The notes under the pieces: model-generated
What the model was told of the DNA's origin: nothing
What the model saw: only the letters and a program-made list of their open reading frames with translations
Databases searched by the model: none
Assembly (NCBI RefSeq): GCF_003044035.1
Contig: NZ_NVQC01000007.1
Span: 25,454 to 57,453 of the forward strand
Direction of reading: 5' to 3'
Length of the DNA stretch: 32,000 nucleotides
Source: Candidatus Methylomirabilis limnetica
Lineage (GTDB): Bacteria > Methylomirabilota > Methylomirabilia > Methylomirabilales > Methylomirabilaceae
Translations under genes and position numbers: made by a program
Shown here: one piece after another, positions 2,998-26,107 of the stretch
Numbering within the stretch: the first letter of the stretch is position 1
How the letters are laid out: each line of letters opens with the position of its first letter

Positions 2998-3827
2998 AGC
3001 GTTCGCCCTACTTGCACTGGAAAGACCAGCGGCGGCAGGATCAACTCCCGGAGCCCAGACGATTTCGTCTGTCGAATCGTGAGCGTGAGCTCCACAGCCA
3101 ACGGCATACGATCAGAGCCCTTCAGGGCGCGCTGCCCCTGTGCAGGGACGAATCTCCGAGCTGGGGGCTGCGGCGTCTCGTCTTGGGAAGGATCCCAAGA
3201 ATCGCGCCAGGCGGGGGGAAGATTTTCCTCCGGCCTGCCCTCCGGCACCAGGTACCGAAAGCGCGCCTGCAACGCTCGTTCATCGAGCGGTTTGACTGAA
3301 TCCTCGAACGAGGCGGATGCCTGAGTAGCAAGAGGGTAGCTTCCTGTGGCCACCAGTCCCCGACCAGACTCGACGGCATAGGCCACGATCCTGACCATGT
3401 GACTGAATGGTTCGGCCCCGTAGCTCTGTGGAAGGGTAGCAAACTTGAGGGAGTCCGACTTGCCATGAAAGGCGATGACATCCTTATCCTGCTCTTTCAC
3501 ACGCAAAGGGTGTATCATCGTAAGGTCTCGTGCGAGGGTCTCGACAAGGGTGCGATTGCGCTGGCTCTCTTCCGCCCGCGCCTCCCCGCTCTCCCACGAC
3601 TTGGCTCCAACCTGGATCGCACCAAGTACGGCGACGAAGATAAGCGACAGGATCGTCAGCGAGATCAAGACCTCGATCAAGGTGAAGCCGTGCGGAGTGC
3701 GGAGTTCCAGGTTTCGGGTTTCGGGTTTCGGGTTTCGGGTTTCGGGAGTCCTGCTCTTGTCAGAAACCTGGAACGTGGAACTCGAAACTAGAAACTCGAA
3801 ACTCGAAACTTGCTTACTGCACCACAC
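2994..3827 (-). CDS. gspJ: Type II secretion minor pseudopilin GspJ-like
   Basis: 277 aa. Prepilin motif PHG|FTLIEVLISLTILSLIFVAV. Size and position between gspI and gspK fit. The only in-frame start is GTG 3827, which gives an unusually long ~46-aa leader encoded by heptamer palindrome B. Confidence 0.7.
   Translation of the reverse strand: MWCSKQVSSFEFLVSSSTFQVSDKSRTPETRNPKPETRNLELRTPHGFTLIEVLISLTILSLIFVAVLGAIQVGAKSWESGEARAEESQRNRTLVETLARDLTMIHPLRVKEQDKDVIAFHGKSDSLKFATLPQSYGAEPFSHMVRIVAYAVESGRGLVATGSYPLATQASASFEDSVKPLDERALQARFRYLVPEGRPEENLPPAWRDSWDPSQDETPQPPARRFVPAQGQRALKGSDRMPLAVELTLTIRQTKSSGLRELILPPLVFPVQVGRTL
3705..3808. repeat. Heptamer-palindrome element B: (GTTTCGG)x5 ... (CTCGAAA/CTAGAAA)x4
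   Basis: Five perfect tandem GTTTCGG at 3711-3745 and four tandem CTCGAAA-type heptads at 3781-3808. There is also a perfect 11-bp inverted repeat, TTCCAGGTTTC 3705-3715 / GAAACCTGGAA 3763-3773. The element sits at the gspI stop / gspJ start. Confidence 0.85.
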
Positions 3828-4299
3828 GCGTCTGACCCAACTTCTTCTCGTCCACCATCATCCTCAGGGTCTGAAGGTTCACGGATTTCTCTCCACGGCG
3901 GCTAGGCCACGTGACGCGGACCTGGACACTGTAGAGCCGACCGGGGAGTTCTTCCTCCTGTTCGAGCGGCTGGACCTCAGAGGCCCAACGGAATCCCCCA
4001 CCGAACTCCCCTGTTTCGGCCGAGCCTGTGAGGTTCCGCATTACGGCGACCTCGGCCATTTTCTGCCGAGCCAGCAGGACCGCCTGAGTGTAATCTTCGG
4101 ACGCCTTCGCAGAGCGAACCCCAGCGGCTAGCAGCTCCATGGCCAAGGCGAACCCGATACCGAGAATGGCCAAGGCAACAATGACCTCGAGCAGCGTGAA
4201 GCCATGCTCCGTACGGCGTGCGGAGCATGGCAAATCCCCCCGTGCCCCCCTTTTGTAAAGGGGGGGGTGGGGGGATTTCGCGCTTCGCACTATGTTCAC
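3814..4299 (-). CDS. gspI: Type II secretion minor pseudopilin GspI-like
   Basis: 161 aa. Prepilin motif EHG|FTLLEVIVALAILGIGFALAM. GTG 4299 forms a GTGA overlap with the gspH stop. The leader codons (SPHPPLYKRGARGDLP) come from a G/C-tract REP. An alternative in-frame TTG (GD-L-PC) would give a 10-aa leader. Confidence 0.7.
   Translation of the reverse strand: MNIVRSAKSPHPPLYKRGARGDLPCSARRTEHGFTLLEVIVALAILGIGFALAMELLAAGVRSAKASEDYTQAVLLARQKMAEVAVMRNLTGSAETGEFGGGFRWASEVQPLEQEEELPGRLYSVQVRVTWPSRRGEKSVNLQTLRMMVDEKKLGQTRVVQ
4202..4278. repeat. Palindromic REP-like elements inside the gspI leader region
   Basis: Perfect 10-bp inverted repeat CCATGCTCCG 4202-4211 / CGGAGCATGG 4221-4230. Nested G/C hairpin AAATCCCCCC 4232-4241 / GGGGGGATTT 4269-4278, with inner stem CCCCCCTTT / AAAGGGGGG. 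Confidence 0.7.
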
Positions 4300-4850
4300 G
4301 CATTCTCTGCGGTGCTGATGCGAATCAACCCAACCGATGGATCCACAACAATTCGATAGGCTCGCCCCTTCTCGTCAGAGAGGTCAATCGATCCACCCGT
4401 CGAGCTCCCCTGCGGAAAGAAGGCAATGGCGCCACGCTCATCTGACCGAAGGGGGCCGGTGGTGAGGAGAACGGACTTCAGGCTCACACCAGGCGGAAGA
4501 GAACGGACCCGAGCCTGCCGCATCTGAACCTGCTGTTCCGGGTCCTCAACCGTTGGAACCTGGTCGATGCCGCTCAGGCGGCCGACAATCCAGTCGGGTC
4601 CCCTCAACCAGTAGCGATTGGTCTGCCGGTCAAGCACCACCTCCACTACATCCTGGTTGGCGATCGCCTGCGTTCTGGCAAACCGGCACAGGGCGGCGAT
4701 ATCCCTCGCCGAGGCCTTGAGTCGAGCCTGCCCGAATGGGTGGCTGAAGGCCGGTGCGACCAGCACGGTCACCAGCGTGAGAATGAACAGCACCACGGTA
4801 AGTTCGAGGAGCGTGAAGCCCCTCGTACCCCGCACTGGTCTATTGTTCAA
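4296..4850 (-). CDS. gspH: Type II secretion minor pseudopilin GspH-like
   Basis: 184 aa. Leader MNNRPVRGTRG|FTLLELTVVLFILTLV. Position between gspG and gspI fits. Confidence 0.7.
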   Translation of the reverse strand: MNNRPVRGTRGFTLLELTVVLFILTLVTVLVAPAFSHPFGQARLKASARDIAALCRFARTQAIANQDVVEVVLDRQTNRYWLRGPDWIVGRLSGIDQVPTVEDPEQQVQMRQARVRSLPPGVSLKSVLLTTGPLRSDERGAIAFFPQGSSTGGSIDLSDEKGRAYRIVVDPSVGLIRISTAENA

Positions 4851-5340
4851 CCCGCTCTCCTGCCCGTTTGATGCCCGCCCAGCTCACGATGTCCTGATTC
4901 TCCCCATCGCCACCCGCCACGCCATCACCGCCATAGGAGATGATATCGTAATCGCCATGCTCCCCCGGAGACTTATAGACAAAGGGGTGCACCCAGGGAT
5001 CTAACGGGATCTCCTGCTTCTTGAGATAGGGCCCATCCCAGTTCTCAACCGCGCCCGGATTGACAAGCATCGCCTTCAGCCCTTCCTCGCTGGTCGGATA
5101 CCGGCCGACGTCGAGGCGAAAGTTGTCTAAGGCGGCGCCGAACAGCTCGATCTGGGCCTGAGCCGCCGCCTGCTTACCCTTCCCCACCCTGCCGAACAGC
5201 TTCGGCCCAACGAGAGCGGCCAACAGGCCGATGATGATGATGACCACCAGCAGCTCGATGAGGGTGAAGCCGGCCTGATTACGGTGCAAGGTCCTGGCCC
5301 TCGCCTTTTGCCATACCTGGATATCTTCACATCGCTGCAT
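4840..5340 (-). CDS. gspG: Type II secretion major pseudopilin GspG
   Basis: AG|FTLIELLVVIIIIGLLAALVGPKLFG...AQIELFGAALDNFRLDVGRYPTSEEGL..WDGPYLKK..PLDPW..PFVYKSPGEHGDYDIISYGGDG is canonical GspG. The start is uncertain. Candidates are ATG 5340, GTG 5346 (AAGGAG 6 nt upstream), and TTG 5289, which would give the classical short leader MHRNQAG|F. Confidence 0.85.
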   Translation of the reverse strand: MQRCEDIQVWQKARARTLHRNQAGFTLIELLVVIIIIGLLAALVGPKLFGRVGKGKQAAAQAQIELFGAALDNFRLDVGRYPTSEEGLKAMLVNPGAVENWDGPYLKKQEIPLDPWVHPFVYKSPGEHGDYDIISYGGDGVAGGDGENQDIVSWAGIKRAGERVEQ

Positions 5341-5420
5341 TCCCACGCTCAGCTCCTTTGCTCCATGCCCCATCTGTACGTATGTTCGCACCCCGCACCC
5401 CCTCCCTGCCTCTCCTCCCT

Positions 5421-5478
5421 TGTAGGGGCAGGCCTTGTGCCTGCCCAGAGCGGGCGACCACCAGGGTCGCCCCTACGT
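5421..5478. repeat. REP-like multi-hairpin element in the gspF-gspG spacer
   Basis: Stems GGGCAGGC/GCCTGCCC and GGGCGACC/GGTCGCCC, enclosed by GTAGGGG...CCCCTAC. This generates the artefactual ORF 5284..5532. Confidence 0.7.
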
Positions 5479-5512
5479 CGGCGAGGGTGGGGACGTACCC
5501 CGCAAACTGTAC

Positions 5513-6739
5513 TTAGAGCGGAAGCTCATTGATACTAAATATCGCCAGCAACATCGACATCACGATGAATCCAACAATGAGGCCTAGGGACAGGATCAGG
5601 ACCGGCTCCAGCAGCGAGGTCAAGCGCTTGACCGTTCGCCGCACCCGGTCATCGTAGGTGTCGGCCACCTTGATCAGCATCTCCTCCAGCTTTCCAGTCT
5701 CTTCTCCCACCCTGGCCATATGGATGGAAAAGGAGGGAAAGGCACCAGTGGCCCGCAGCGGGCCGCTGATTCCCTCGCCACGCTTCACCCCCTCTTGCAA
5801 CCTGGACATGGCGCCGGCGATCACCCGATTGGTGACCGTCTCTTTGACGATAGAAACGGCGGCGAGCACCGGGACCCCGCTTTGGAGAAGCGTCCCGAAC
5901 GTCCTGGCAAAGCGGGAGACCTCGATCTCCTGAATCAGGCCTCCCAGTAACGGCAAGGCCAGCTTCCACTGGTCCCACTGCATCTTCCCCTGCTCAGTCT
6001 GTAGATAGGCTCGAAGACCACCCCAGCCAATGACGATCAGCCCCACAAACACCCACCAGTAGCCGGTCGTGAACGTGCTGATCGCGAGCAGCATCCTGGT
6101 CGGCAGTGGCATGAGCTGCTTGGTATCGGCAAAGATCTGGGCAAACCGTGGAATCACGAAGTTCATCATGACCACCACGGCACCGCCACCCACAAGGAGC
6201 AGCAGAATCGGATAGATGAGGGCTGAGGTGATCTCGTCCCGGATCGTCTTGGACCGCTCCATAAACCCGGCCAGCCGCGAAAGGATCACCTCTAACACGC
6301 CGCTCGCCTCCCCCGCCTTAACCATATTGACGTACAGCCGGGAGAAAAGTCGTGGATGCTTAGCCAAGCTGTCGGCGAATGAACTACCCGCCTGGATGTC
6401 GGCCAGGACGCCACGGAGAATAGACCGGAACCGTTGATTGTCGGTCAGGTCCAGCAGGATCGACAGGCTCCGGTCCAGCTCCATCCCAGCCTCAAGCAAT
6501 GTGGCAAGTTGTTGCGTGAAGGCCAGGACGTCTTGGGCGGACGGTCCCCTCGCAAATCGGCTCTGGACCCCAGCGAGACCAGGCTTGGCCTCCACCATCG
6601 CACCGGCCTGACCAATCTTGATCGGGTAGTAGCCGTTGGTCTGGAGCCAAACCACGACCGCCCGTTCGTCGGAAGCCTCCATGCTCCCCTGGATGATCTT
6701 GGCGGCACGATCAGTGGCGGTGTATTGAAATGTCCCCAT
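5513..6739 (-). CDS. gspF: Type II secretion inner-membrane platform protein GspF
   Basis: 408 aa with two T2SSF-type repeats and three TM segments. The N-terminus MGTFQYTATDRAAKIIQGSMEA is typical of GspF/PilC. Confidence 0.9.
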   Translation of the reverse strand: MGTFQYTATDRAAKIIQGSMEASDERAVVVWLQTNGYYPIKIGQAGAMVEAKPGLAGVQSRFARGPSAQDVLAFTQQLATLLEAGMELDRSLSILLDLTDNQRFRSILRGVLADIQAGSSFADSLAKHPRLFSRLYVNMVKAGEASGVLEVILSRLAGFMERSKTIRDEITSALIYPILLLLVGGGAVVVMMNFVIPRFAQIFADTKQLMPLPTRMLLAISTFTTGYWWVFVGLIVIGWGGLRAYLQTEQGKMQWDQWKLALPLLGGLIQEIEVSRFARTFGTLLQSGVPVLAAVSIVKETVTNRVIAGAMSRLQEGVKRGEGISGPLRATGAFPSFSIHMARVGEETGKLEEMLIKVADTYDDRVRRTVKRLTSLLEPVLILSLGLIVGFIVMSMLLAIFSINELPL

Positions 6740-6774
6740 ACGCAGGCTTGACTGTAACTACTTAGACGTTTAGG

Positions 6775-7127
6775 CTGAAGGCTGAAGACTATACATTATC
6801 TCGCACGGCACAATGAACTACCCCGCAGCAAGCTACGGGGTATCGTCTTCTGTTCTGGCCCGTCATTCCGTGCTTGACACGGAATCCAGTCGGGCCCTCT
6901 GGATACCGGCTTCCGCCGGTATGACGAACTCGCGGCAAGCCGCGGGGAATGAACCCCCAGTAGATTCAAGAACTTCCCGGCTTCTACGACCTTTGGTTCT
7001 CTCAGAGAGGACTCCTCATTGGGCAAGAAGCCCACACGCTTCGACGCATTGCGACTTCAACAGCCAACTCAACTGCCAGAGGTTGTGTGTGATCATCGCT
7101 TTAACCCTAAAAGCCTTCAGCCTTCAG
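6775..7127. repeat. Inverted-repeat-bounded ~350 bp non-coding block containing stacked REP hairpins
   Basis: 13-bp inverted repeat CTGAAGGCTGAAG 6775-6787 / CTTCAGCCTTCAG 7115-7127 (tandem heptads). Interior hairpins include ATTCCGTG/CACGGAAT, ATACCGGC/GCCGGTAT and CCCCG/CGGGG. Track ORFs 6796..7035 and 6813..7235 are artefacts of it. Confidence 0.6.
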
Positions 7128-7265
7128 TCTATCTACCTAATGAGTTACATTTTACCTTTATTGACACCGAATTACAGGTATAGGTTTACGACTATAGCAA
7201 CTACCGATGCACTGTCAATAGAAATCAGGTCCTGAAATGGCCCTGCAAGTCGCTTGAACTGGCCT

Positions 7266-7302
7266 CAAAAATCAAGCAGATAGGAGACCCTATCTGCTTG
7301 AT
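7266..7302 (-). terminator. Rho-independent terminator downstream of gspE
   Basis: Perfect 14-bp stem ATCAAGCAGATAGG 7271-7284 / CCTATCTGCTTGAT 7289-7302 with a 4-nt loop. On the minus strand it is followed by TTTTT (7266-7270). It lies 42 nt after the gspE stop. Confidence 0.75.
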
Positions 7303-7343
7303 TGATAAAGGGTTGCCGGCTCACATGGGGAAGCAGTCGGAGC

Positions 7344-9077
7344 TTACGCCTCCTCTTTGGTGACCCGAAGCAGATCCTCCAGGGTCGTAACCCCCAACTC
7401 AACGTTCCGCCAGCCATCCTCCCAGAGCGTCTTCATGCCAAACTGGAGCGCCTTCTGCCGAATCGTGTTAGAGTCGGCCTTTTCCAGGATCAACCGTTGA
7501 ATCTCTTCGCTGATTACCAAAAACTCGTAGATGCCGCTGCGACCACGGTATCCGGTAAAGTTACACGCGGCGCATCCCTTACCCCGAAATACCTGCATCG
7601 ATCCATCGACCTCGGTCTTGATCCCCATTTTTCGGACCGCAGCCGAATCCAACCGGTACGACTCCCGGCACTCATGGCAGATAACGCGGACCAAGCGCTG
7701 AGCCAGGACCGCCACCAGGACGCTCGAAACCAGGTAGTTTTCGATACCCATGTCCAGAAGCCTCGTGATGGCGCCGGGCGCGTCATTCGTATGCAGGGTG
7801 CTGAACACCAGATGCCCGGTCAGCGCCGAATGGATGGCGATGTCTGCGGTCTCCGCATCGCGGATCTCCCCAACCATGATGATGTCTGGATCCTGGCGGA
7901 CGATAGAGCGCAGGCCGTTCGCGAAGGTCAGACCGATCTTGGGCTTGACGTGGATCTGGTTGACTCCTTGGAGCTGATACTCAACCGGGTCCTCGATGGT
8001 GATGATCTTTTTGTCGGCGGAGTTGATCTCACTCAGCGCCGTGTACAAGGTGGTCGTCTTCCCGCTCCCGGTCGGCCCCGTCACCAGGATCATGCCATGC
8101 GGCTTTCTAATCAGCCGCTGGAATTGTAAGCGAATATCTTCAGGCATGCCCATATCCCCGAGGCTCAGGAGGAGGCTACTGCGATCCAGGATTCGCATCA
8201 CGACGCTTTCGCCGTGCAAGGTGGGAATCGTGGAGACCCGGAGGTCCAGGTCCTTCCCCAGGATCTGGAGCCTGATCCGACCGTCCTGTGGAAGCCGTCG
8301 CTCGGCGATGTTCATCTTGGCCATGATCTTGACACGGGAGATCACGGCCCTCTGGAGCCGCTTGGGAGGGGACTCGTGGTCCACCAGCACGCCATCCACC
8401 CGGTAGCGGATTCGAAGCGTATCCTCGAACGGTTCGATGTGGATATCGCTGGCGCGGGCCTCCACCGCCCTGGTGATCACGAGATTCACAAGCTGGATAA
8501 CAGGGGCCTCGGAGGCCAGATCCCGCAGATGATCGATATCCTCACGATCATCGCCTGACGCCCCACCCTCCTCCTCGCTATACCCCTTGACGATCTTCTC
8601 GATCGTCGCCTGGCCATCGCCATAATACTGATCGATCGCATCGAGGATCTCCCGATCCTGGGCTAAACAGACTATGATAGCGAGGCCGGTGCTAAGTCGA
8701 AGGTCGTCTAGCGTATACGGATCAGCCAGGTCGCCCATGGCGACGGTCAACGCGCCATCTTTGATCTCAATCGGGAAGACCTTGTGCTCCCGCAGGTACT
8801 TCGAGGAGGGACGATTACGAATCAGAACAGGTGTAATCGAGAGGGCTGCGAGCGATAGATAGGGAACTGCAAATTGCAGGGCAAGAGCTTTTGCGACGTC
8901 TTCTTCTGACACATACCCAAGCTCTACAAGGGTTTCCCCAAGCCGTTTACCGACCTCCCGCTGGTGAGCTAACCCTCGTTGGAGTTGGTCCCGAGCAACC
9001 AAGCCCTCACGGATCAGGATTTCGCCAAGCGGTTCGCGCACCCCACTCCACTGCCCACTGCCCATAGTGCGATCCAT
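7344..9077 (-). CDS. gspE: Type II secretion ATPase GspE
   Basis: 577 aa. N-terminal MshEN/GspE_N-like domain, Walker A GPTGSGKTTTLY, Asp and His boxes, and the tetracysteine motif CHEC...CAAC. Confidence 0.92.
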   Translation of the reverse strand: MDRTMGSGQWSGVREPLGEILIREGLVARDQLQRGLAHQREVGKRLGETLVELGYVSEEDVAKALALQFAVPYLSLAALSITPVLIRNRPSSKYLREHKVFPIEIKDGALTVAMGDLADPYTLDDLRLSTGLAIIVCLAQDREILDAIDQYYGDGQATIEKIVKGYSEEEGGASGDDREDIDHLRDLASEAPVIQLVNLVITRAVEARASDIHIEPFEDTLRIRYRVDGVLVDHESPPKRLQRAVISRVKIMAKMNIAERRLPQDGRIRLQILGKDLDLRVSTIPTLHGESVVMRILDRSSLLLSLGDMGMPEDIRLQFQRLIRKPHGMILVTGPTGSGKTTTLYTALSEINSADKKIITIEDPVEYQLQGVNQIHVKPKIGLTFANGLRSIVRQDPDIIMVGEIRDAETADIAIHSALTGHLVFSTLHTNDAPGAITRLLDMGIENYLVSSVLVAVLAQRLVRVICHECRESYRLDSAAVRKMGIKTEVDGSMQVFRGKGCAACNFTGYRGRSGIYEFLVISEEIQRLILEKADSNTIRQKALQFGMKTLWEDGWRNVELGVTTLEDLLRVTKEEA

Positions 9078-9227: not shown

Positions 9228-9257
9228 TTAACAATTTGGGGATTCACCCGTTATAAT
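9228..9257 (+). promoter_or_regulatory. Candidate sigma70 promoter facing the RiPP-like operon
   Basis: Plus strand: TTAACA (9228-9233), 18-nt spacer, TATAAT (9252-9257). It is divergent from the gspE promoter and ~270 nt upstream of precursor A. Confidence 0.35.
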
Positions 9258-9525: not shown

Positions 9526-9666
9526 ATGGGGGAATCGGGAAAGACAGCAGAGCTTATCGATCGTGAGGCGAAGGAGTCCAAAGCCGCCTACGAGCGGCCT
9601 ATCCTCAGACGGGTGGGGTGGCTTCGGGATGTGACCGCTCAGGCGAGCATAGATACTATTGAGTGA
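9526..9666 (+). CDS. RiPP precursor peptide A (46 aa), lasso-type leader, predicted core QASIDTIE
   Basis: Not in the ORF track. GGAGGG lies 6 nt upstream of the ATG. MGESGKTAELIDREAKESKAAYERPILRRVGWLRDVTA|QASIDTIE matches Y-x2-P-x-L-x3-G-x5-T-x. Confidence 0.75.
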   Translation: MGESGKTAELIDREAKESKAAYERPILRRVGWLRDVTAQASIDTIE

Positions 9667-9691: not shown

Positions 9692-9826
9692 ATGGGGGAA
9701 TCGGGAAAGACAGCAGAGCTTATCGATCGTGAGGCGAAGGAGTCCAAAGCCCCCTACCAGCGTCCCACCCTCAGGCGAGTGGGGTGGCTTCGGGATGTGA
9801 CCGCTAACGGAAGCACTGATACTTAG
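9692..9826 (+). CDS. RiPP precursor peptide B (44 aa), predicted core NGSTDT
   Basis: Tandem paralogue of A, offset 166 nt, same RBS. MGESGKTAELIDREAKESKAPYQRPTLRRVGWLRDVTA|NGSTDT. The first 20 codons are identical to A. Confidence 0.75.
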   Translation: MGESGKTAELIDREAKESKAPYQRPTLRRVGWLRDVTANGSTDT

Positions 9827-9898: not shown

Positions 9899-11272
9899 AT
9901 GGACGTAGTAGGGGCTGCGCTGAGCAGGCGCCTGCGTTCGTTCTTTCGATCGCGGCGAAAGCTGCAGAAACTACAAGACTCCTTCCACAATCTGGGATGG
10001 TACGCCCTCACTGCCTGGTCACGCTGGAAGCTTAAGGGATTCCAGGGGCCGGTGATTGCTATTACCGGCACCAAAGGGAAGACTACGACCACCCGCCTGA
10101 TCTCCAGGATTTATTCGGATGCCGGTTATCGGGTCGGGATGGCCTGTAGCGGGGGGGTCTACGTCAATGGCATCTGCGTCCTAAGTGGGTCATTCTCGGG
10201 TGTGGACGGTCCCCTCCGGGCCTATCGGGCCGGAGGGCGCGATCTTCTCGTGCTGGAAACCGCCCATGGCTCGATCCAGCGGTATGGATTCGGCTTCCCT
10301 GACTGTAACGTCGCGATCTTCACCAATATTACCGATGGCCACCTGGGTGAGCTAGGCATCGAAACCCTGGAGGAGATGCTGGCCCTGAAATGGAGGTTGG
10401 CTTCCAGGGTCCGTTCAGGGGGGACTATCATTCTAAACGCTGATGATCCTCTTCTGTCCTCCCTTCGCCCTCCTCGATGTGTCGAAGCGGTCCACCTGAG
10501 CCTTGCCAGATCTCCTGCGCATGGCGGCGCTGATCTCGGTGCGCCTCTGTATCGATACGATTATCATGGAGCGGTGGTAAAGGAGTGTGGCGGATGCCCT
10601 TCCATCGTTGCCGAAATCTCTGATGCACCTTTGCTTTGTAAGGGCTTTGCTCCGTATAACGCCTACAACCTGCTGGCGGCCATTGCCTCCGTAGAGGCCA
10701 TGCGTCCATTCCTGCCAGTTTCACAGGAGTCGCTTCTCAAGAGTCTCATGTCTTTCGGGTCGGTCCCGGATGATAACCCTGGGCATTTCAATCTGTTCGA
10801 GGGTGCATGGGGAAGGGTGCTCCTTTTGGCGGGGAGCAACAGGGACAGTTACCAGAGGGATGCCCAGGCTCTTGCCAGAATACGGGTCTGCCCCCCTTTT
10901 CCTGTGGGACGCATCATCGGGGTTATCACGGGCATAGGGATGCAATCAACGAGTTACATCCGTGAACTTGCCGGGATCGCCGCTTCCGTGTGTGATGAGA
11001 TCATCATCCGGGAACCCCTGCCGCGTTACAGGCATGTGAGGGCCCCGGGAGAGATCTCATCTATCCTGAAGTCAGCGGCGTTGGAGTCTGGCATCCCTTA
11101 TCACGCCATTCATGTTTGGAGCGAGACATCTGACCTGATCAGGGATCTCGTTCTCCCCAACAGGGAGGCAAACCGTTTCGTTGCTGTCTTTTCTGCATTT
11201 GCCCAGGAGCCGATCATTGATCTCTGCCGGCGCTTGGGTGACCTGGGTTCCAGCTCTAACCGGTGGTCGTGA
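9899..11272 (+). CDS. Stand-alone Mur ligase family protein, cyanophycin synthetase M-domain-like
   Basis: 457 aa. P-loop ITGTKGKTTTTRLI, then GGVYVNG...LVLETAHGSIQRYGFGF..CNVAIFTNITDGHLG...IILNADDPLL parallels the CphA Mur-ligase-like domain. There is no ATP-grasp domain. Confidence 0.75.
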   Translation: MDVVGAALSRRLRSFFRSRRKLQKLQDSFHNLGWYALTAWSRWKLKGFQGPVIAITGTKGKTTTTRLISRIYSDAGYRVGMACSGGVYVNGICVLSGSFSGVDGPLRAYRAGGRDLLVLETAHGSIQRYGFGFPDCNVAIFTNITDGHLGELGIETLEEMLALKWRLASRVRSGGTIILNADDPLLSSLRPPRCVEAVHLSLARSPAHGGADLGAPLYRYDYHGAVVKECGGCPSIVAEISDAPLLCKGFAPYNAYNLLAAIASVEAMRPFLPVSQESLLKSLMSFGSVPDDNPGHFNLFEGAWGRVLLLAGSNRDSYQRDAQALARIRVCPPFPVGRIIGVITGIGMQSTSYIRELAGIAASVCDEIIIREPLPRYRHVRAPGEISSILKSAALESGIPYHAIHVWSETSDLIRDLVLPNREANRFVAVFSAFAQEPIIDLCRRLGDLGSSSNRWS

Positions 11273-11480: not shown

Positions 11481-11801
11481 ATGGAATTGAGAGATCTTAC
11501 TCGTATTTGCCCGATGAAAGGTGAACATGTCACATGGAAGGCCCTCGAAGGGGAGAGCGTACTCCTCCATCTCGAGACCGGTGTCTATTTCACCTTGAAT
11601 GAAACGGGCACCACGGCATGGGAGCTGTTCGATGGGGCGACCTCTTTGGCTGCGATAGGTGAGGCCCTGTACGCGCGATTCGATGTCCTGCCAGAACAGG
11701 TTGGGCAGGATCTCCTCGATCTGACGCAGACACTCCTAAAGGAAGGATTGGTGAGGGTTTGTGAAGACCCTTCGACGCCTTCGGGAACTGAGCGATCCTG
11801 A
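11481..11801 (+). CDS. PqqD family RiPP recognition element (lasso B1-like)
   Basis: 106 aa. VLLHLETGVYFTLNETGTTAWELFDGATSLAAIGEALYARFDV is a typical PqqD/RRE fold signature. GAGG lies 5 nt upstream of the ATG. Confidence 0.85.
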   Translation: MELRDLTRICPMKGEHVTWKALEGESVLLHLETGVYFTLNETGTTAWELFDGATSLAAIGEALYARFDVLPEQVGQDLLDLTQTLLKEGLVRVCEDPSTPSGTERS

Positions 11802-12264
11802 GGCGCTTTGGCTCTTCGTCTGGTCGCTTCTCACCATCTTCGAGGCAGCCGTCCTTGTGCGGACCTTGCCATTGCCCACGCTCCTCAGCCACTTTAGCCG
11901 TCAGTCTTCAAGGCGTTCCGAGCGGAAGGCGCTCGTCAAACCGGAGATTCGCTCACTCGACCGGGTCCGGCGGTATAGCAATATGATCATCACACGTCTC
12001 CTCCGTTCTCGGCGCCCATGCCTACTCCGCTCCCTAGTCGTGTACCGATACGGTTGCAAGCACGGTATCCCAGTCTCGATCCACTTTGGTGTGAGGTCCG
12101 GTATGGATAGATTGGAAGGACATAGCTGGGTGACGCTTGACGGCGCCCCCCTGGGTGAGTCGGAAGAAGGGTTGCGTCCGTATGTGGCCGTCTATTCGTA
12201 CCCGACAGGTACCGACGGGGCCGACCCCCAACACGCTCTGGCAGCGGTTGGCTGGCGGCCATGA
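11761..12264 (+). CDS. Transglutaminase-like cysteine protease (lasso B2-like leader peptidase)
   Basis: 167 aa, GTG start overlapping B1 by 41 nt. Motifs RRPCLLRSLVVYRY (Cys), GVRSG...GHSWVTLDG (His/Asp) match lasso B2 proteins. Confidence 0.85.
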   Translation: MKTLRRLRELSDPEALWLFVWSLLTIFEAAVLVRTLPLPTLLSHFSRQSSRRSERKALVKPEIRSLDRVRRYSNMIITRLLRSRRPCLLRSLVVYRYGCKHGIPVSIHFGVRSGMDRLEGHSWVTLDGAPLGESEEGLRPYVAVYSYPTGTDGADPQHALAAVGWRP

Positions 12265-13361
12265 TCGGACAGCTCGTCGAAACAGGGTGCCGCGCCACAC
12301 CCGGTCTTGGTCGCTGGTACCTGGACCATTATGTCAGTATCAAGCGATTCGAGAAGCAGGTCCGACGCCGACTAGGATTTCCCGCACCCCCCTCATCGGT
12401 AGATCTCCTGCTGACCTATGGCTGTAACTTCACCTGCGATCACTGCGAATCCTCGTCCCATCCCAAGGCCGAGTGGGGGCTTTCCTTCGAGACGATCGCC
12501 CGGCTGATTCGTGAGATGGGGGAGATGGGGGTGAAGTATCTTAACATTACGGGCGGCGAGCCACTCGTTCGACACGATGTCTTCGACATCATTGATCTCG
12601 CCACTCAACAGGGATTGCGGGTGCATCTGGCCACCAACGGAAGCCTGGTCGAGCAGAACCGCGAACGGCTGGCCCGGCTCAAGCTGGCCAGCGTCTTTAC
12701 CAGCGTGGACGGCTTGGAGGAGACGAACGATCGCTTCCGACACCACCCCGGGGCCTTCAAGAAAACCTTCCGGGCCCTTGAGTTGTTTCAGGAGATGGGG
12801 ATCTCCCCTCGCATGGTCAATACGATGGCCCATCCCGGAAACCTCCATGAGATGGAGGAGCTGGGGGATTGGATTATGGCCTCGGCTGCGACCTGCTGGC
12901 GGATCGCGCTGGCCCTGCCCTCGGGGCGGGCAAAGGGCAAGGATCGTTTCCATCTGACCGACGATCAGATCCGGTGGATTCTTGATTTTATCCGAGAGCG
13001 ACGGGAACGATTTCCGGTGATGCTAAGCGAAGAGGTGGGGTATCTGGGACCGTGGGATCTGGAGGTCAGGTCGAAGCCATTCACCCCCTCGGAAGGGCTG
13101 AGCGTCTGTGCCATCATGCCAACAGGGGATGTCATCGGGGCAACCGTCCTTCATGATGCGGCCTATTCCGAAGGGAACATCAAGGATCAGGGCCTCAGGG
13201 AGATTTGGAATAACGGCTTCCAGCGCTATCGGGAGCCGGTCCTTCCAGAGGAGTGTTACGCCTGCCGCCACCTCCCTGCCTGCGGCGGCGGCAAGTTAGT
13301 GATGCGCGTAGGTAATCGTCACTGCAACAAACAACTCTGGGAAGGAGGAGGAAACGCATGA
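12261..13361 (+). CDS. Radical SAM enzyme with C-terminal SPASM/twitch-like Cys cluster
   Basis: 366 aa. CNFTCDHC (Cx3Cx2C), GGEPL, and C-terminal C..G...CYACRHLPAC...HC. ATGA overlap with B2. Its stop overlaps the ATG of precursor C (ATGA). Confidence 0.88.
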   Translation: MIGQLVETGCRATPGLGRWYLDHYVSIKRFEKQVRRRLGFPAPPSSVDLLLTYGCNFTCDHCESSSHPKAEWGLSFETIARLIREMGEMGVKYLNITGGEPLVRHDVFDIIDLATQQGLRVHLATNGSLVEQNRERLARLKLASVFTSVDGLEETNDRFRHHPGAFKKTFRALELFQEMGISPRMVNTMAHPGNLHEMEELGDWIMASAATCWRIALALPSGRAKGKDRFHLTDDQIRWILDFIRERRERFPVMLSEEVGYLGPWDLEVRSKPFTPSEGLSVCAIMPTGDVIGATVLHDAAYSEGNIKDQGLREIWNNGFQRYREPVLPEECYACRHLPACGGGKLVMRVGNRHCNKQLWEGGGNA

Positions 13362-13486
13362 AGGAAGTCCAGGAACAGAACGTCCATGAGACCGATCAGA
13401 AGACGCCCTACACGAAGCCGACCCTCACGAAGCACAAGCCGCTGCGGGATATTACGGCGGGGGACATCTCGGGTGCCCGTGGATAA
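13358..13486 (+). CDS. RiPP precursor peptide C (42 aa), predicted core GDISGARG
   Basis: Not in the ORF track. GGAGGAGG RBS. MKEVQEQNVHETDQKTPYTKPTLTKHKPLRDITA|GDISGARG has the same spacing as A/B, with K in place of the motif G. Confidence 0.75.
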   Translation: MKEVQEQNVHETDQKTPYTKPTLTKHKPLRDITAGDISGARG

Positions 13487-13570: not shown

Positions 13571-13675
13571 ATGAAGGATGTTACGCCAACTCCAAAGCAG
13601 CCGTACACGAAGCCGACGCTGACGAAGCACAAGCCACTGCGAGATATCACGGCAGCAAATCCCTCGATTACATAA
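13571..13675 (+). CDS. RiPP precursor peptide D (34 aa), predicted core ANPSIT
   Basis: Not in the ORF track. AAGGAG lies 7 nt upstream. MKDVTPTPKQPYTKPTLTKHKPLRDITA|ANPSIT. Confidence 0.75.
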   Translation: MKDVTPTPKQPYTKPTLTKHKPLRDITAANPSIT

Positions 13676-13864: not shown

Positions 13865-14971
13865 ATGGGGCACATGGGAGCAGCGGGGATCGATTGCGTC
13901 GCGTCACCAGCCGCCAGGATGAAGGCGACACGTGTACGCTGTAATGGCACTATGAGCGGTCTCCTGACGCAGCATTTTAATATCCACGGCATCGGCGTTC
14001 GGGTGGATACTGATATTCCGTTGTTGGCCACCGCGATTGGTGAGCTGCTGCACCGGTTTGCCTATCCTCCCGTGACGGATAGTCAGCCGCTGCGATTCAT
14101 CTATGGACGTAGCGGGAAGGCCCTGGACCCACTTTCAAATGGATCATCCGATGGAGGCGGGCCATTGCTCTTCTCGACATCCTGGGAAAATGCCTTCGAT
14201 CTTGCTGGGCGGCTGGGAGTCAACTGGGACGTCTATGGTCGGGATGGTTGCCTATTGCTGGATTATCATCGACGTGGCCGGCTACGGCTTGACGTCTCGG
14301 CAGGGGTACTCGAGGGATCGCTCACTGAGCCGTTGGATCTCCACCCTGCACTGCTCCCCAGCATCTTCTTCTTTTTTCCGCTCGCGCAGCTTCTGGCACG
14401 GCGGGGACTCCATATAATTCATGCAGCCGCGCTGGAACGGAACGGGTGCGGGGTGCTGATCCCCGGCTTGAGCGGGAGCGGCAAGAGTACCAGTTGTGTG
14501 GCACTCATGCGTGGAGGGTATCGCTGCCTCTCTGATGACAAACCGTTTCTCCGAGGGACCGAGAACGGCCTTGAGCTGCTCGCCTTCCCAGAGATGATCG
14601 ATGTGACCGATCAGACCATTGCCTTCTTTCCGGAGCTTCGTGAGAGAACGGCCGCGATCGCGGTGGGTTATCGAAAGAAGCGGTTCTGCGCCGAGATGCT
14701 CTATCCGGGATCAACGGTCGATGCCGCCACACCTCGCGTGATTCTGTTTCCACAGATCAGTAAAGAGTCGACAAGTAGAGTCGAGCCGCTTTCAAAGATC
14801 AGGGCACTTCAGGCGCTCCTGCCTCATAGTCTCCTCTGTTTTGATCGCGAGGTTTCGGTACGTCACTTCGAGCTGCTCTCACGCCTCGTCGAAACAACTG
14901 CCTGCTATCGCCTGCATTTTGGCCGTGACGTCATGGACCTGCCCCGCCTGATCGATCCGCTCCTGGGATGA
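13865..14971 (+). CDS. HPr kinase-related (HprK-like) serine/threonine peptide kinase
   Basis: 368 aa. HIIHAAALERNGCGVLIPGLSGSGKSTSCVALMRGGYRCLSDD matches the HprK C-terminal P-loop region. The start is uncertain (ATG 13865, 13919 or 13952). Confidence 0.75.
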   Translation: MGHMGAAGIDCVASPAARMKATRVRCNGTMSGLLTQHFNIHGIGVRVDTDIPLLATAIGELLHRFAYPPVTDSQPLRFIYGRSGKALDPLSNGSSDGGGPLLFSTSWENAFDLAGRLGVNWDVYGRDGCLLLDYHRRGRLRLDVSAGVLEGSLTEPLDLHPALLPSIFFFFPLAQLLARRGLHIIHAAALERNGCGVLIPGLSGSGKSTSCVALMRGGYRCLSDDKPFLRGTENGLELLAFPEMIDVTDQTIAFFPELRERTAAIAVGYRKKRFCAEMLYPGSTVDAATPRVILFPQISKESTSRVEPLSKIRALQALLPHSLLCFDREVSVRHFELLSRLVETTACYRLHFGRDVMDLPRLIDPLLG

Positions 14972-16095
14972 CGGGGATGAAAAGTTCCCCAGAGGGGCAC
15001 GCCCTCCTTAGGATACTCCGGGCCTCGCTGTCTGAGGCCTCTTCAGATCCGGCAATCGTCCTCTCCGCTCTCGACTGGTCCCTGCTCCAGCGATTGGTCC
15101 GCCACCACCGGGTCGGACCGCTCCTCTCATACAGCCTGCGCCGGTCCCGGATTCGTGGGATCCCAGACTGGCTACGATCGGAATGGGAGGCGCAACGCCG
15201 TGAGACGGTCGCCACCGCCCTGTACCACGTGCAGGCCCTAGGGGAGCTGGCGGGACTGTTCGAGGCTCGTGACATCCCATTCATCCTCCTGAAGGGCGAG
15301 GCCCTCTCGAAAACATGCTATCCGGATGAAGGGCTGCGGCCCTACAGCGACATCGATCTCCTCATCAAAGAGGGCTCCTACGAGACGGCAAAGGCTGCGC
15401 TGACAGAGTGTGGGTTTGGCCTAAGGTACCCGCACCTCGAGACCGAGAAGCGCGAGTTGTTTGGGGAGGTTGAGTTCGATCGGCAAGGTCCAAGAACGCT
15501 GACGGTGGATCTCCACTGGGATACCCTCATGGCCTCCTGGGGGCCACCATCCCTTTTGAGCGGTACAGAAGCATGGAGCGTCGCTGAGCAGATCCAGATC
15601 GGGGGGCGACTCGTACCAATACTCGGAGGCGAGACTCTACTGCTCCACCTCTGTGTCCACTTTACATTCCACCACGCCTTTGACGGCCTAATTCTCCTGT
15701 GTGATCTTTTCCTGGTCCTCAGGCGGGAAGGTGGCCGGATCGACTGGGGTCGTCTCTTGCGGAAGGCTGATCGCTATCGGTGCCGCTACGCGGTCTACTA
15801 TGCCCTGACTTGCGTACAGTCGCTCCTGGGGGCCCACATCCCGTCCCCGATCCTAAAGAGACTGAGACCGGCGATTCCGGTTAGGCTCCTCATGCCGGTT
15901 ACTCAGTTGCTCCTACGGGATCGTCCGGTCCCTCAGTTGCTGGAACGCTATGTCAAGTTCCTCCTGATCGACGATCAGGCGGGCCGCTGGCGGGCTGCTC
16001 AGAGCTGGTGGGGGTCAAGCAAGCCGTGGCTGATCAAACGGAACCGCGCCTCGCGCCGTTCAGCTACTGTTGACATTACCGCACCCGGCGCATAG
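14968..16095 (+). CDS. Nucleotidyltransferase family protein (NTP_transf_5 type)
   Basis: 375 aa. IPFILLKGEALSKTCYPDEGLRPYSDIDLLIKEGSYETAKAALTECGF is the signature of the uncharacterised nucleotidyltransferase family seen next to HprK-like kinases. 4-nt overlap with the kinase gene. Confidence 0.75.
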   Translation: MTGMKSSPEGHALLRILRASLSEASSDPAIVLSALDWSLLQRLVRHHRVGPLLSYSLRRSRIRGIPDWLRSEWEAQRRETVATALYHVQALGELAGLFEARDIPFILLKGEALSKTCYPDEGLRPYSDIDLLIKEGSYETAKAALTECGFGLRYPHLETEKRELFGEVEFDRQGPRTLTVDLHWDTLMASWGPPSLLSGTEAWSVAEQIQIGGRLVPILGGETLLLHLCVHFTFHHAFDGLILLCDLFLVLRREGGRIDWGRLLRKADRYRCRYAVYYALTCVQSLLGAHIPSPILKRLRPAIPVRLLMPVTQLLLRDRPVPQLLERYVKFLLIDDQAGRWRAAQSWWGSSKPWLIKRNRASRRSATVDITAPGA

Positions 16096-16211: not shown

Positions 16212-17081
16212 TCAAGCGGGCGTCGACCTTTCCGTGCCTGCCGCCGTTGAAGGGGAGATAAAGAACGCTACGACATCCTCGCCCCCATCCACCCCGATCA
16301 CGTTACCTGTCATCCAGTAGGTCTCGGGGCGGCTCAAGGTGACGAGGATTTCGGCAATGTCCTCGGGCGTGGTGAGGCGGCCGGAGGGATTGAGCCGCAT
16401 CGCAGTTTCTACGATCTCCTGGCTTCCTGGGATCTTCCGGAGCGCTGGAGTATCGGTGACCCCTGCGCGGATAGCGTTCGCCGTAATCCCCATGGGGGCC
16501 AGCTCCATCGCGAGCTGCCGGATATGCGACTCCAGAGCCGCCTTGGCCGCCGAGACGGCCCCATAGCCGGCCCAGACCCGCCTCCCGCCAGAACTGGTCA
16601 TCGCGTACACCCGTCCACCGCGGACCATCAACTTTCGCGTCACCAGCTCCTGAACCCAATAGATGAGGCTGTGGGCCATCACACCCAGGGTCATATCCAT
16701 CTGGACCGAGGTGATGGCGTCCTTGGGCGAAAGGGCAACGAACGGCTTCAGGGTCCCGAAGGCGAGGGAGTGCAGCATCACATTCACCGCAGAGGACTCC
16801 CCTCGATCGGCCAGGATCTTCTCCATCTGATCCAGGACATCGCACCGCTTCTCTGAATCGGAGGCGTTCACGTTGAAAAAGACCGCTTCCCGCCCCGCGT
16901 GTTTGATCTCGCTGATGATCCGCTCGACATTCGGCATGGTTGCCTTGCGGTCCAGGTGTACGCCAAATATATGCATCCCTGCTTTCGCCAGAGCAAGGGA
17001 GGCGGCCCCACCGAAGCCGCTGGAGGCCCCAAGGATCAGGGCCCACCCCTGCAGTCCCGAACTCTGCGATTGCGTTGTCAT
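16212..17081 (-). CDS. SDR family oxidoreductase, enoyl-ACP reductase (FabL/FabI)-like
   Basis: 289 aa. GASSGFG nucleotide-binding motif and YGAVSAAKAALESHIRQLAMELAPMGITANAIRAG active-site region. Confidence 0.75.
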   Translation of the reverse strand: MTTQSQSSGLQGWALILGASSGFGGAASLALAKAGMHIFGVHLDRKATMPNVERIISEIKHAGREAVFFNVNASDSEKRCDVLDQMEKILADRGESSAVNVMLHSLAFGTLKPFVALSPKDAITSVQMDMTLGVMAHSLIYWVQELVTRKLMVRGGRVYAMTSSGGRRVWAGYGAVSAAKAALESHIRQLAMELAPMGITANAIRAGVTDTPALRKIPGSQEIVETAMRLNPSGRLTTPEDIAEILVTLSRPETYWMTGNVIGVDGGEDVVAFFISPSTAAGTERSTPA

Positions 17082-17595
17082 GCACTCCTCCGCGTCTGTT
17101 TTCTTTATATCTCAGGAATGACGGTTTCCGGAGATCTGTCGAACGGTACTGTCGTTTGACGCCGAGCTTCTATAAATATAGCGCAGCATCTCATCAGCAG
17201 ATGGAGCTTAGACTTCTTTTTGTCCTCTGTCAACCATGAATCAGACGTCTCTCCGCACTCAGAAGGTACCCCATGGGGGGAATGAAGGTGAGGGAGTACC
17301 AAGCATTGGACCTAACGCCTCCCCACCAAACTTGCACGCCCATGGACGCACCACTGGCGCATCGAGTATTACGAGAGAGCAACGCGGCTGAAGCAAACTC
17401 TTAGTTATGGCGGTGCGTGACTGGAGACATGAGGAAGGATCTAGATTCTCAAGAGCTTAGCAGAGAGTCCGATATCGTCCATGGTGTGCTTTCTGTCAAA
17501 GACTGGATGATACCCCGCTCGAATCCGATACGGCGACTGCCTCTAAGTCGTTACCTCCGCATGTAAGGGGTACCCACACTAAACTCGCAACACCC

Positions 17596-18075
17596 CTAAT
17601 CCTCAGCCTTTATAGCCGCGCTGGGCTCACGTTGGTCAGGATGTGGTGAGGGCTCATGTCGATTTGTAGATAGCAGGCCTAGCTGGTACATCAGCCCAAG
17701 GAAGTCGTGCTGTGCCCATCGCTCTATGATCTTCCCTCCCTCGAAACGGTAGATGACAATACCGGTCATCTCTAACCGCTTTCCAGTTGGCGGGACACCA
17801 AAGAGTTCGCCTGTATGCATTCCAGCCGCTGTCATTCGGACCACCACCCGGTCTCCCTCGGCAATCAGATCGTGAATAACGGGGTTGCCCTCTGGGGCCG
17901 CGGACGCAAAAGCTCTGAACGTCTGCTTGATCGCTTCAAGTCCGGGCTTGAGACCGGGGATCGGCGGTGGATCGTGGTAGACAAGATCGGGGGAGAAGAA
18001 CTCATCCATTGCCGAGAATTTGAACCCCTCGTCGTAGAGGCGACGCACTAGACGCTTGTTGTCTTCCGTCGACAT
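17596..18075 (-). CDS. SnoaL-like ester cyclase family protein
   Basis: 159 aa. NKRLVRRLYDEGF...DLVYHD...GLEAIKQTFRAF...VVVRMTAAGMHTGELFGVPPTGKRLEMTGIVIYRFEGGKIIERW is typical of predicted ester cyclases. Confidence 0.7.
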   Translation of the reverse strand: MSTEDNKRLVRRLYDEGFKFSAMDEFFSPDLVYHDPPPIPGLKPGLEAIKQTFRAFASAAPEGNPVIHDLIAEGDRVVVRMTAAGMHTGELFGVPPTGKRLEMTGIVIYRFEGGKIIERWAQHDFLGLMYQLGLLSTNRHEPSPHPDQREPSAAIKAED

Positions 18076-18204
18076 CTGACACCTCCTACATTGCTGTTGT
18101 ATGCGCGGGGCTAAGCGCCGCGCCTATCTGGGGCCTAACCAGTTATTGCGGATTGCTTTTCAGTCAAACAGAAAGTTTTTAGTGAGTCAAGGGATAAATT
18201 GAGA

Positions 18205-18363
18205 GTAACCATTCAGTTACGGGTGGAAAAATCTCCCCTAGCCCCTCTTTTCCAAAGAGGGGGACTACCCGTTTCCCCCTTTGAAGAAGGGGGATTAAGG
18301 GGGATTTTATAAAAACCTACCACATTTTATTTAATGATTTCCCCCCTATCACTGAATGGTTAC
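18205..18363. mobile_element. MITE copy 1 (159 bp, 13-bp perfect TIRs, 8-bp TSD AATTGAGA)
   Basis: TIR GTAACCATTCAGT 18205-18217 / ACTGAATGGTTAC 18351-18363. Direct repeats AATTGAGA lie at 18197-18204 and 18364-18371. The interior is nearly identical to the reverse complement of 31695-31862. Confidence 0.85.
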
Positions 18364-18464
18364 AATTGAGAAGGGCGATACGTTGACAACCTGCATGCGG
18401 AAAGTTATGATGGTGATCTTCTAATCGAACGAAACGTGAACCGTTTCCTGCACTGGAGGGAGCA

Positions 18465-25404: not shown

Positions 25405-25414
25405 AACCGGTCGT

Positions 25415-26037: not shown

Positions 26038-26050
26038 ATCGACCTCCAAA

Positions 26051-26072: not shown

Positions 26073-26107
26073 CTACTCCGTCGCCCTCCCACCGTCAAGG
26101 AGAGTAC

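Follow-up and report, generated by a model that had tools for sequence, protein, structure and literature searches.

Enzymes of the Mur ligase superfamily, such as MurC-F (MurE among them) and MurT, activate a peptide carboxylate as an acyl phosphate in an ADP-forming reaction, and we know of no ribosomal-peptide pathway with an enzyme of this fold. Among RiPPs, peptides that are made by ribosomes and modified after translation, acyl phosphates are formed by the ATP-grasp macrocyclases of graspetides (omega-ester peptides), which activate Asp/Glu side chains and close rings with Ser, Thr or Lys in cores rich in Thr, Ser, Asp and Glu, as are those described here; the two folds are unrelated. 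The subject of this analysis is a free-standing Mur ligase, similar to the cyanophycin synthetase (CphA) M domain and encoded at positions 9899-11272 of a 32,000-nucleotide stretch of Candidatus Methylomirabilis limnetica (contig NZ_NVQC01000007.1; the whole stretch is called the window) next to genes for short precursor peptides with lasso-type leaders.

The closest characterised enzyme is the M domain of CphA1 (Synechocystis, 7lg5/7lgj; Trichodesmium, 7wac/7wae), the best match of the ligase by sequence and fold over both core and lid, which adds Arg to the beta-carboxylate of a C-terminal Asp (PMC9427784). The P-loop, Mg and acyl-phosphate residues of this domain are identical in the ligase, which is likewise proposed to act on a peptide carboxylate and not on a nucleotide-sugar; the two differ in that the ligase is stand-alone, without the N and ATP-grasp G domains, shares only about 27-31% identity and is surrounded by RiPP precursors, not by cphA/cphB/iadA. 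The closest described gene clusters are the kinase-type lasso clusters of paeninodin and pseudomycoidin, whose leader motif, split B1/B2 proteins, HprK-like kinase and nucleotidyltransferase are all common to the window cluster (PMC8498205). In contrast to these clusters, the window encodes a Mur ligase and no Asn-synthetase-like cyclase, the cores of 5-15 amino acids (aa) are mostly too short to thread, and their C-terminal residue is not a conserved Ser. Judging from conserved residues and gene neighbourhood, the adjacent precursors are probably the substrates of the ligase, a core carboxylate being activated as an acyl phosphate; the overall reading of the protein as an ATP-dependent acyl-phosphate-forming enzyme recruited as a dedicated modifier of the adjacent precursors (A and B in the window) is put forward tentatively.

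Domain architecture and active site of the ligase

9899-11272, + strand: 457-aa Mur ligase, stand-alone and similar to the M domain of CphA (ATG start; profile, structure-database and fold matches)

Translation of the open reading frame (ORF) bears out its limits, strand and length, and a GAGAGG Shine-Dalgarno-like motif lies about 9 nt upstream of the ATG. The motif blocks listed in the original prediction, namely ITGTKGKTTT, AGYRVG, LVLETAHGSIQRYGFGF, AIFTNITDGHLG and ILNADDPLL, are all present in the product. Mur_ligase_M (PF08245) is the sole Pfam domain (E 3e-20, residues 55-264), and the top NCBIfam model is cyanophycin synthetase TIGR02068 (E 1.8e-62), which is matched over model positions 480-847 of 862 with 211 bits, far under the 850-bit cut-off; much weaker NCBIfam matches are due to MurE, MurF, MurD, MurC, pseudomurein ligases, CfbE, FolC, MurT and PgsB. 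The nearest solved structures are the CphA1 enzymes of Synechocystis and Trichodesmium (E 2e-34), with residues 51-431 of the ligase aligned to residues 489-855 of the CphA1 chain, which correspond to the entire M domain, core and lid. The resemblance to the CphA M domain, first perceived by eye, was confirmed by structure prediction, CphA1 ranking first by sequence as well as by fold: an AlphaFold2 model built on 64 sequences (predicted local distance difference test, pLDDT, 90.2; predicted template modelling score 0.89) has its best Foldseek matches in the CphA1 M domain (7lgj, 7wae; E ~1e-30, TM 0.70-0.72), aligned over 405-412 columns to Mcore and Mlid, followed by MurE.

In the model, residues 2-45 fold into a helical hairpin of basic character, which is followed by the ATPase core (about 50-290) and the lid (about 295-455); the lid, a C-terminal Rossmann-like domain, is present although Mur_ligase_C (PF02875) is undetected by Pfam. 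The hairpin, whose net charge is +8 to +13 across the family, stands where Mur ligases have their N-terminal substrate domain and CphA1 its N and G domains. The predicted lack of the ATP-grasp G domain and of the N domain in the 457-aa protein holds good by Pfam, by the model and by the restriction of the TIGR02068 match to positions 480-847; likewise, PF01225, the UDP-MurNAc-binding N-domain, has no match in the ligase and only the 45-residue hairpin precedes the P-loop. Compared with MurC-F, MurE and MurT, members of its superfamily whose ADP-forming acyl-phosphate mechanism is ascribed to it by homology, the protein is devoid of the UDP-binding N-domain and of a GatD partner and shows 14-22% identity. 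Binding of an acidic leader by the basic hairpin was considered and ruled out, the leaders carrying a net charge of about +1 to +3. On its sequence and predicted fold, the ligase is judged to share its descent and its mode of action with Mur ligases and, as the nearest of them, with the M domain of CphA1. It does not qualify as a cyanophycin synthetase, since architecture, score cut-off and genomic context all fail.

Ten residues (K61, T62, S84, E120, N143, H148, K164, N180, D182 and D183) are invariant in 22 family members and 42 CphA-like outgroup sequences. The P-loop G57-T-K-G-K61-T62-T63 is invariant and agrees with the GxxGK(T/S) signature of the superfamily, while E120, H148 (DxH), K164 and N180/D183 (NADD), the residues for Mg and acyl phosphate, are unchanged in both family and outgroup; K164 lies at what we take to be the site of the carbamyl-Lys of MurD, MurE and MurF. 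In the enzyme TeCphA1 the equivalents K499, T500, T522 and E558 are experimentally defined ATP/Mg ligands (PMC9427784). The lid is different: the equivalent of TeCphA1 R731 is His in 15 of 22 family members and Arg in the other 7, that of H748 is Ser in all 22, and the acidic stretch KEDDD-KRGR of CphA aligns with the basic REPLPRYR at ligase residues 371-378. Moreover, S313-N314-R315-D316, T344, E367 and P373 are invariant within the ligase family only. The ligase is thus apparently catalytically competent, with its ATP and acyl-phosphate residues intact and, since the activation residues are conserved and the lid residues family-specific, the alignment indicates an activation half that is retained and a nucleophile-handling half that is remodelled.

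Relatives of the ligase and organisation of the clusters

A word-indexed search recovered a tight group of about 35 clusters (55-96% identity, 450-487 aa, PF08245 alone), beneath which identity falls sharply to 33% or less; an exhaustive HMMER search agrees, the whole family being reduced to one representative at 50% clustering. Named records place the family in Ca. Methylomirabilis (NC10) only, with the exception of one metagenome-assembled genome labelled Patescibacteria, which is probably mis-binned, and the B2 homologues are likewise labelled Methylomirabilota. Twelve loci of the family were mapped, the window and 11 related ones; a metagenome scan with the family alignment, based on a generic P-loop pattern, yielded L014 as the single genuine locus of the family, its other 79 results being unrelated Mur ligases that were set aside.

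The ligase adjoins one to five precursor genes in all 12 loci, three of which (L006, L007, L096) consist of the ligase and two precursors and nothing else. In L001 and L094 each of the paralogous ligases is paired with its own precursors, and next to the paralogue designated 'a' there is just one precursor, whose 5-aa core (VNGSV or VTASP) contains no acidic residue. An HprK-like/ScmC kinase gene is found in 8 of the 12 loci, its stop overlapping or abutting the ligase start in five; PqqD, B2 and NTP_transf_5 genes occur together in four, a 2OG-Fe(II) oxygenase gene in three and a radical SAM/SPASM gene in the window alone. No cphA, cyanophycinase or murein genes adjoin any family member, and neither cyanophycinase nor isoaspartyl dipeptidase is encoded in the window or the 11 related loci; glutaminase, racemase and amine-biosynthesis genes are absent from all 12 loci, and the ATP-grasp domain typical of graspetide macrocyclases is found neither in the window cluster nor in the other ligase-family loci.

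Most family loci (L001, L003, L004, L007, L008, L094-L097) share one hypervariable island, bounded by tatD (after metG) on one side and by a conserved 58-aa Cys-rich protein and homocysteine S-methyltransferase/metE genes on the other, whose gene content is unlike in every assembly; the ligase module of L006 lies instead about 270 nt upstream of a tRNA-Gly(CCC) gene.

Outside this family the context changes. The nearest outgroup in the tree is made of stand-alone Mur ligases (about 30% identity, 550-566 aa) located right after a full-length cphA1 together with cyanophycinase and isoaspartyl dipeptidase; they are free-standing M-domain proteins too, but, unlike the ligase, they begin with about 100-170 additional aa and contain a Mur_ligase_C domain that can be recognised as such, and they belong to cyanophycin operons without precursor peptides. 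A second tier is represented by short stand-alone M-domain proteins (33-37% identity) found among Mur-ligase paralogues, as in L104 (37%), or in a precursor-free region, as in L105 (35%), which lies 6 kb upstream of murG-murC-ddl. Inspection of L015 (28%), L104 and L105 for RiPP genes revealed no precursors and no B1/B2, and therefore the RiPP link is not extended beyond the NC10 clade; in a neighbour-joining tree the RiPP-linked ligases form a monophyletic clade inside the CphA-like radiation. Conserved synteny with unrelated pathways, which had been set beforehand as telling against the link to RiPPs, was found only among distant relatives (at or below 30-37% identity), in cyanophycin or other contexts, while homologues of at least 55% identity all adjoin precursor genes. 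The L104 relative (L104:384-4026) is encoded beside two Mur-ligase paralogues on a 4-kb metagenome contig and may belong to a multi-ligase pathway unrelated to murein.

In the window, the genes around the ligase are arranged as follows.

9228..9257, + strand: sigma-70-like promoter candidate upstream of precursor A (TTAACA-18-TATAAT, 11/12 positions; sites of this kind are no commoner in the region than in shuffled sequence, hence a positional hint only)
9526..9666, + strand: precursor A, 46 aa, leader MGESGKTAELIDREAKESKAAYERPILRRVGWLRDVTA, core QASIDTIE (Shine-Dalgarno GGAGGG 6-7 nt before ATG; leader fits YxxPxLx3Gx5Tx; orthologous precursors in L006)
9692..9826, + strand: precursor B, 44 aa, A-type leader, core NGSTDT (strong Shine-Dalgarno)
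11481..11801, + strand: PqqD-family RRE protein, lasso B1-like (PF05402, E 4e-18; NCBIfam lasso_PqqD models, E ~1e-11, below cut-offs)
11761..12264, + strand: lasso B2 leader peptidase, transglutaminase-like Cys protease (PF13471, E 6e-16; NF033537 lasso_biosyn_B2, 56.3 bits against a cut-off of 33)
12261..13361, + strand: radical SAM/SPASM enzyme (PF04055 and PF13186; 4-nt overlaps with B2 and precursor C, translational coupling)
13358..13486, + strand: precursor C, 42 aa, leader ending in PYTKPTLTKHKPLRDITA, core GDISGARG (orthologous to the M. oxyfera precursor ...KPLRDITA followed by GDVSVIGGVRV)
13571..13675, + strand: precursor D, 34 aa, C-type leader, core ANPSIT (59-nt repeat common to C and D)
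13865..14971, + strand: HprK-related kinase, ScmC-like, Walker A GLSGSGKST (Hpr_kinase_C, E 1e-5; TIGR04352 HprK_rel_A, E 7e-22; both below cut-offs)
14968..16095, + strand: NTP_transf_5 nucleotidyltransferase (PF14907, E 7e-55; 4-nt overlap with the kinase gene)

The B2 translation contains the Cys (RPCLL), His (GHSW) and Asp (LDG) motifs, and orthologues of the HprK-related kinase carry a precomputed PF27840 ScmC match. The cluster is composed of two modules side by side, with no terminator found between them by a terminator scan; Rfam and tRNA scans of the window returned nothing. Module 1 comprises precursors A and B, a 166-nt tandem duplication with 91% identity, and the ligase; it matches the stand-alone module of L006 (GWLRDVTA leaders, cores QASTDEAEV and GGASNDT) and recurs alone in L006, L007 and L096. 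Module 2 comprises B1, B2, the radical SAM enzyme, precursors C and D with their KPLRDITA leaders, the HprK-like kinase and NTP_transf_5, and it matches the M. oxyfera reference locus FP565575.1 757177-777689 (L103: 9724-12676), where PqqD, B2, a 40-aa precursor (MKEIVTEEPKMPYTKPTLTKHKPLRDITA followed by GDVSVIGGVRV), an HprK-like protein and a GT2 glycosyltransferase are encoded in this order and neither a Mur-type ligase nor a lasso cyclase is found. Because module 2 stands in M. oxyfera without either enzyme, the B1/B2/kinase system is a cyclase-less pathway in its own right, and L103 appears to be an undescribed 'lasso-derived' pathway of this kind. From the separability of the modules it follows that the ligase is best regarded as serving the precursors of its own module, A and B, and not simply as a cyclase stand-in, and that peptides C and D need not be its substrates. 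In consequence, the placement of the ligase in the position of the lasso cyclase, as originally proposed, is right as to a stand-alone ligase in a lasso-type RiPP cluster without a cyclase, but gene order had been over-read; the substrate cases built on C (Asp2) and D (C-terminus only) need not apply, these peptides belonging to module 2.

The lasso-type features are evident in the leaders. Those adjacent to the ligase read PYxRPxLxxxGxLRD[VI]TA, which corresponds to the lasso rule YxxPxLx3Gx5Tx with Thr at -2, and in those of module 2 (precursors C and D and that of M. oxyfera) YxxPxL and Thr-2 are preserved but Lys replaces the Gly; the LRD[VI]TA box is invariant in all precursors examined, acid-free cores included, while other leader parts vary. 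The core assignments made earlier (A QASIDTIE, B NGSTDT, C GDISGARG, D ANPSIT) stand under this rule, with the addition that core A also has a C-terminal Glu8, which had been missed. Lasso B1 (RRE/PqqD) and B2 are both present in the window by PF05402 and PF13471, NF033537 being above its cut-off. However, no ORF of the 32-kb window encodes an Asn-synthetase-like lasso cyclase and none of this type lies within about 10 kb of the ligase in the 11 related loci; furthermore, lasso threading goes with a long core and a ring Asp/Glu at position 7-9, whereas here the first acidic residue is mostly at 4-6. With the cyclase absent and most cores too short, the cluster is not a lasso system.

In L003 (13629-15215), L004, L094, L095 and L097 the precursors or NTP_transf_5 are directly followed by the gene of a conserved protein, about 530 aa in length, that is absent from the window. 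Pfam, NCBIfam and PDB sequence searches gave no match for it; its AlphaFold2 model (pLDDT 89.1) has Foldseek matches to PaaK-family adenylate-forming enzymes (BT_0428, PaaK1, NatL2, AjiA1, ClxA), and its family counts more than 640 members at 55% identity or above, Armatimonadota and Chloroflexi included. This protein was considered as a 'hidden cyclase' of the window and rejected, being absent there and belonging to a broad family conserved across phyla; given the many members in other phyla, the PaaK-like fold may be unrelated to the peptides. On the whole, the idea that the ligase replaces the cyclase is only partly supported, because the ligase module is separable, module 2 is ligase-free in M. 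oxyfera and a PaaK-like enzyme is present in five loci.

Core peptides and the proposed reaction

Statistics were obtained on 29 ligase-adjacent cores by within-core shuffles (n=20000). The cores are hypervariable, 5-15 aa long (median 8) and dominated by Thr, Gly, Ala, Asp and Ser. Asp/Glu is never found at positions 1-3, in comparison to 13.3 occurrences in the shuffles, none of the 20000 shuffles being as low; two of the three module-2 cores, unlinked to the ligase, start with GD (Asp2). The first carboxylate is always at position 4-9, counting the C-terminus for the acid-free cores, which are four of the 29 (VNGSV, VTASP, AVKTGNPG and ATKTAGPPG). A penultimate Asp occurs in 11 cores against 3.4 expected (p = 2.5e-4), and the last four residues include an acidic one in 23 (p = 0.002). 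These patterns indicate, at the level of sequence, a carboxylate-directed reaction sensitive to the distance from the leader junction or from the new N-terminus. As the core of the 'a' paralogue is acid-free, that enzyme must use the alpha-carboxylate or the invariant Asp of the leader.

Ser/Thr at position 3 or 4 is present in 28 of the 29 ligase-adjacent cores and in all three module-2 cores, and probably serves kinase or transferase functions and not the ligase. Lys is found at position 2 or 3 in 10 of the 29 cores, and all Gln residues are at position 1 (10/29). The kinase and transferases probably recognise or modify Gln1, Lys2/3 and Ser/Thr3/4.

In the mechanism that we favour, the ligase would phosphorylate a core carboxylate 4-9 residues past the leader junction, usually that of Asp5/Asp6, often penultimate, or the C-terminal alpha-carboxylate in cores without Asp/Glu, and the acyl phosphate would be captured by a nucleophile of the same peptide. 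The chance of such an intramolecular capture is placed at somewhat less than even. The likeliest nucleophile would be the alpha-amine exposed on leader removal by B1/B2, a step that taken on its own is rather doubtful, while capture by the side chain of Lys, Ser or Thr is improbable. The product would be a small ring, unthreaded and about 5-9 residues in size, that bears a tail of 0-4 residues, and the HprK-like kinase, nucleotidyltransferase, radical SAM enzyme and others would act as separable tailoring enzymes, probably on core Ser/Thr 3 or 4. Several points make intramolecular capture the preferred course: lasso leader and B1/B2 logic occur without a cyclase; only cores linked to the ligase shun carboxylates at positions 1-3; none of the loci contains a gene that would provide an external amine; the active site has been reshaped on its nucleophile side; and ring closure by a homologue of Mur ligases has a precedent in CfbE. 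This enzyme, the coenzyme F430 synthase, forms a ring intramolecularly with the use of ATP (PMC7242693). It acts on a tetrapyrrole and makes a C-C bond, and its relationship to the ligase, a weak NCBIfam P-loop match, is very distant.

Several observations weigh against ring closure by the ligase. B1/B2 adjoin it in just 4 of the 12 loci, so that cyclisation via a freed N-terminus would need B1/B2 encoded elsewhere; a separate B1/B2 locus is found in M. oxyfera. To our knowledge, all characterised Mur ligases except CfbE use a small external amine bound by the C-terminal domain, and this domain is retained and highly conserved in the ligase. The PaaK-like protein could supply an adenylating, ring-closing activity in its five loci, the enrichment of Gln1 finds no explanation in the cyclisation, and the position rule of the carboxylates fits equally well a leader-anchored 'ruler' for an intermolecular reaction. 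In such a reaction of the Mur/CphA type the leader-bearing precursor would be bound, a side-chain Asp/Glu near the C-terminus or the C-terminal carboxylate activated, and a free common amino acid or amine added, possibly repeatedly, giving a branched or C-terminally extended linear peptide later trimmed by B1/B2. This course of events is possible, if somewhat doubtful: it agrees with the addition of Arg by the closest relative, with the conserved lid, which is the amino-acid-binding domain, with the ligase and precursor modules that have no B1/B2 nearby, and with the enrichment of penultimate Asp and of acidic residues in the last four positions, which resembles the C-terminal Asp substrate of CphA. 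On the other hand, the change of the acidic stretch of CphA to REPLPRYR makes Arg a probably wrong nucleophile, none of the loci supplies a special amine, the acid-free cores beside the 'a' paralogue leave the alpha-carboxylate as the sole core site, and it would be unusual for a hypervariable RiPP family to end in short linear hydrophilic peptides with one residue added.

The remaining explanations move the substrate away from the core. A non-peptide substrate, such as a polymer of the cyanophycin kind, an intermediate of the cell wall or some other metabolite, perhaps in self-protection, would be in line with the 30-37% relatives in cyanophycin loci, among Mur-ligase paralogues (L104) or upstream of murG-murC-ddl (L105), and is very unlikely in view of close homologues that adjoin precursor genes in 12 of 12 loci, with nothing else in three, of paralogues paired with their own precursors, of the missing UDP-MurNAc-binding N-domain of MurC-F and of the lack of any cphA, cyanophycinase or murein gene beside a family member. 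Slighter still is the likelihood that the target is the leader itself, at the invariant Asp -4 of the LRD[VI]TA box, whose modification would control or replace leader processing; this Asp is the only side-chain carboxylate present in every precursor and the box is kept even with acid-free cores when other leader parts vary, but it is also found in the ligase-free M. oxyfera locus, recognition by B1/B2 or the kinase explains its conservation better, and the positional bias of the acidic core residues would be left unexplained. With regard to the favoured intramolecular capture, its most specific form, in which the ligase is a new, class-defining RiPP macrocyclase, the first with a Mur-ligase fold, that with B1/B2 closes 5-9-residue head-to-side-chain or head-to-tail lactams via an acyl phosphate (ADP + Pi) and not an adenylate, should be regarded as a rather unlikely case.

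Surroundings of the cluster and significance

Directly upstream of the cluster and divergent from it lies a type II secretion/type IV pilus-like operon (341-9077, - strand), which encodes GspE, GspF, GspG, GspH, minor pseudopilins, GspK and a PilM/PilN-like protein. Downstream (16212-18773), an enoyl-ACP-reductase-like SDR (16212-17081, - strand), a SnoaL-like cyclase (17596-18075, - strand) and an ABM monooxygenase (18465-18773, + strand) have no evident link to the peptides. Two adjacent ABC exporter genes with fused permease/ATPase (18893-22353, - strand; 590 and 563 aa), whose top NCBIfam matches include, far below cut-off, a 'cyanophycin metabolism-associated ABC transporter', could export peptides, but they are on the opposite strand and 3 kb off. 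Farther on, the segment 25100-27330 takes in a region of low guanine-cytosine (GC) content (GC 0.48 at 26001-27000) and holds two toxin-antitoxin-like pairs recognised by eye, PIN/VapC plus antitoxin and RelE/ParE plus a Phd/YefM-like antitoxin, as well as a duplicated segment in which the + strand ORFs 25135-25467 and 26286-26567 start with identical translations; its second copy underlies the gene of a 109-aa helical protein (26177-26506, - strand).

Targeted full-text literature searches brought up no paper that connects RiPPs or lasso peptides with Mur ligases or with cyanophycin synthetase, and nothing on lasso-like clusters in Methylomirabilis; for ScmC/SynChlorMet they gave unrelated acronyms only. 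The ligase is probably the first Mur-ligase-type enzyme modifying ribosomal peptides, and its loci a RiPP pathway with a new class of core-modifying enzyme. Either outcome, ring closure or amino-acid addition, would amount to a new enzyme family and a new bond-forming logic for RiPPs, and would show the lasso leader/B1/B2 toolkit re-used without the lasso cyclase and the domain of a storage-polymer (cyanophycin) synthetase recruited into natural-product chemistry. The system is small, one enzyme and a substrate of 44-46 aa, and hence directly testable in E. coli; its hypervariable 5-15-aa cores suggest a tolerant enzyme of possible use in peptide engineering. In Ca. Methylomirabilis, whose methane and nitrite metabolism is well known but not its natural products, these loci point to unexplored peptide chemistry, and a macrocyclase of the Mur fold, if confirmed, would imply that NC10 methanotrophs make miniature peptides, lariat or cyclic, that belong to a hypervariable family.

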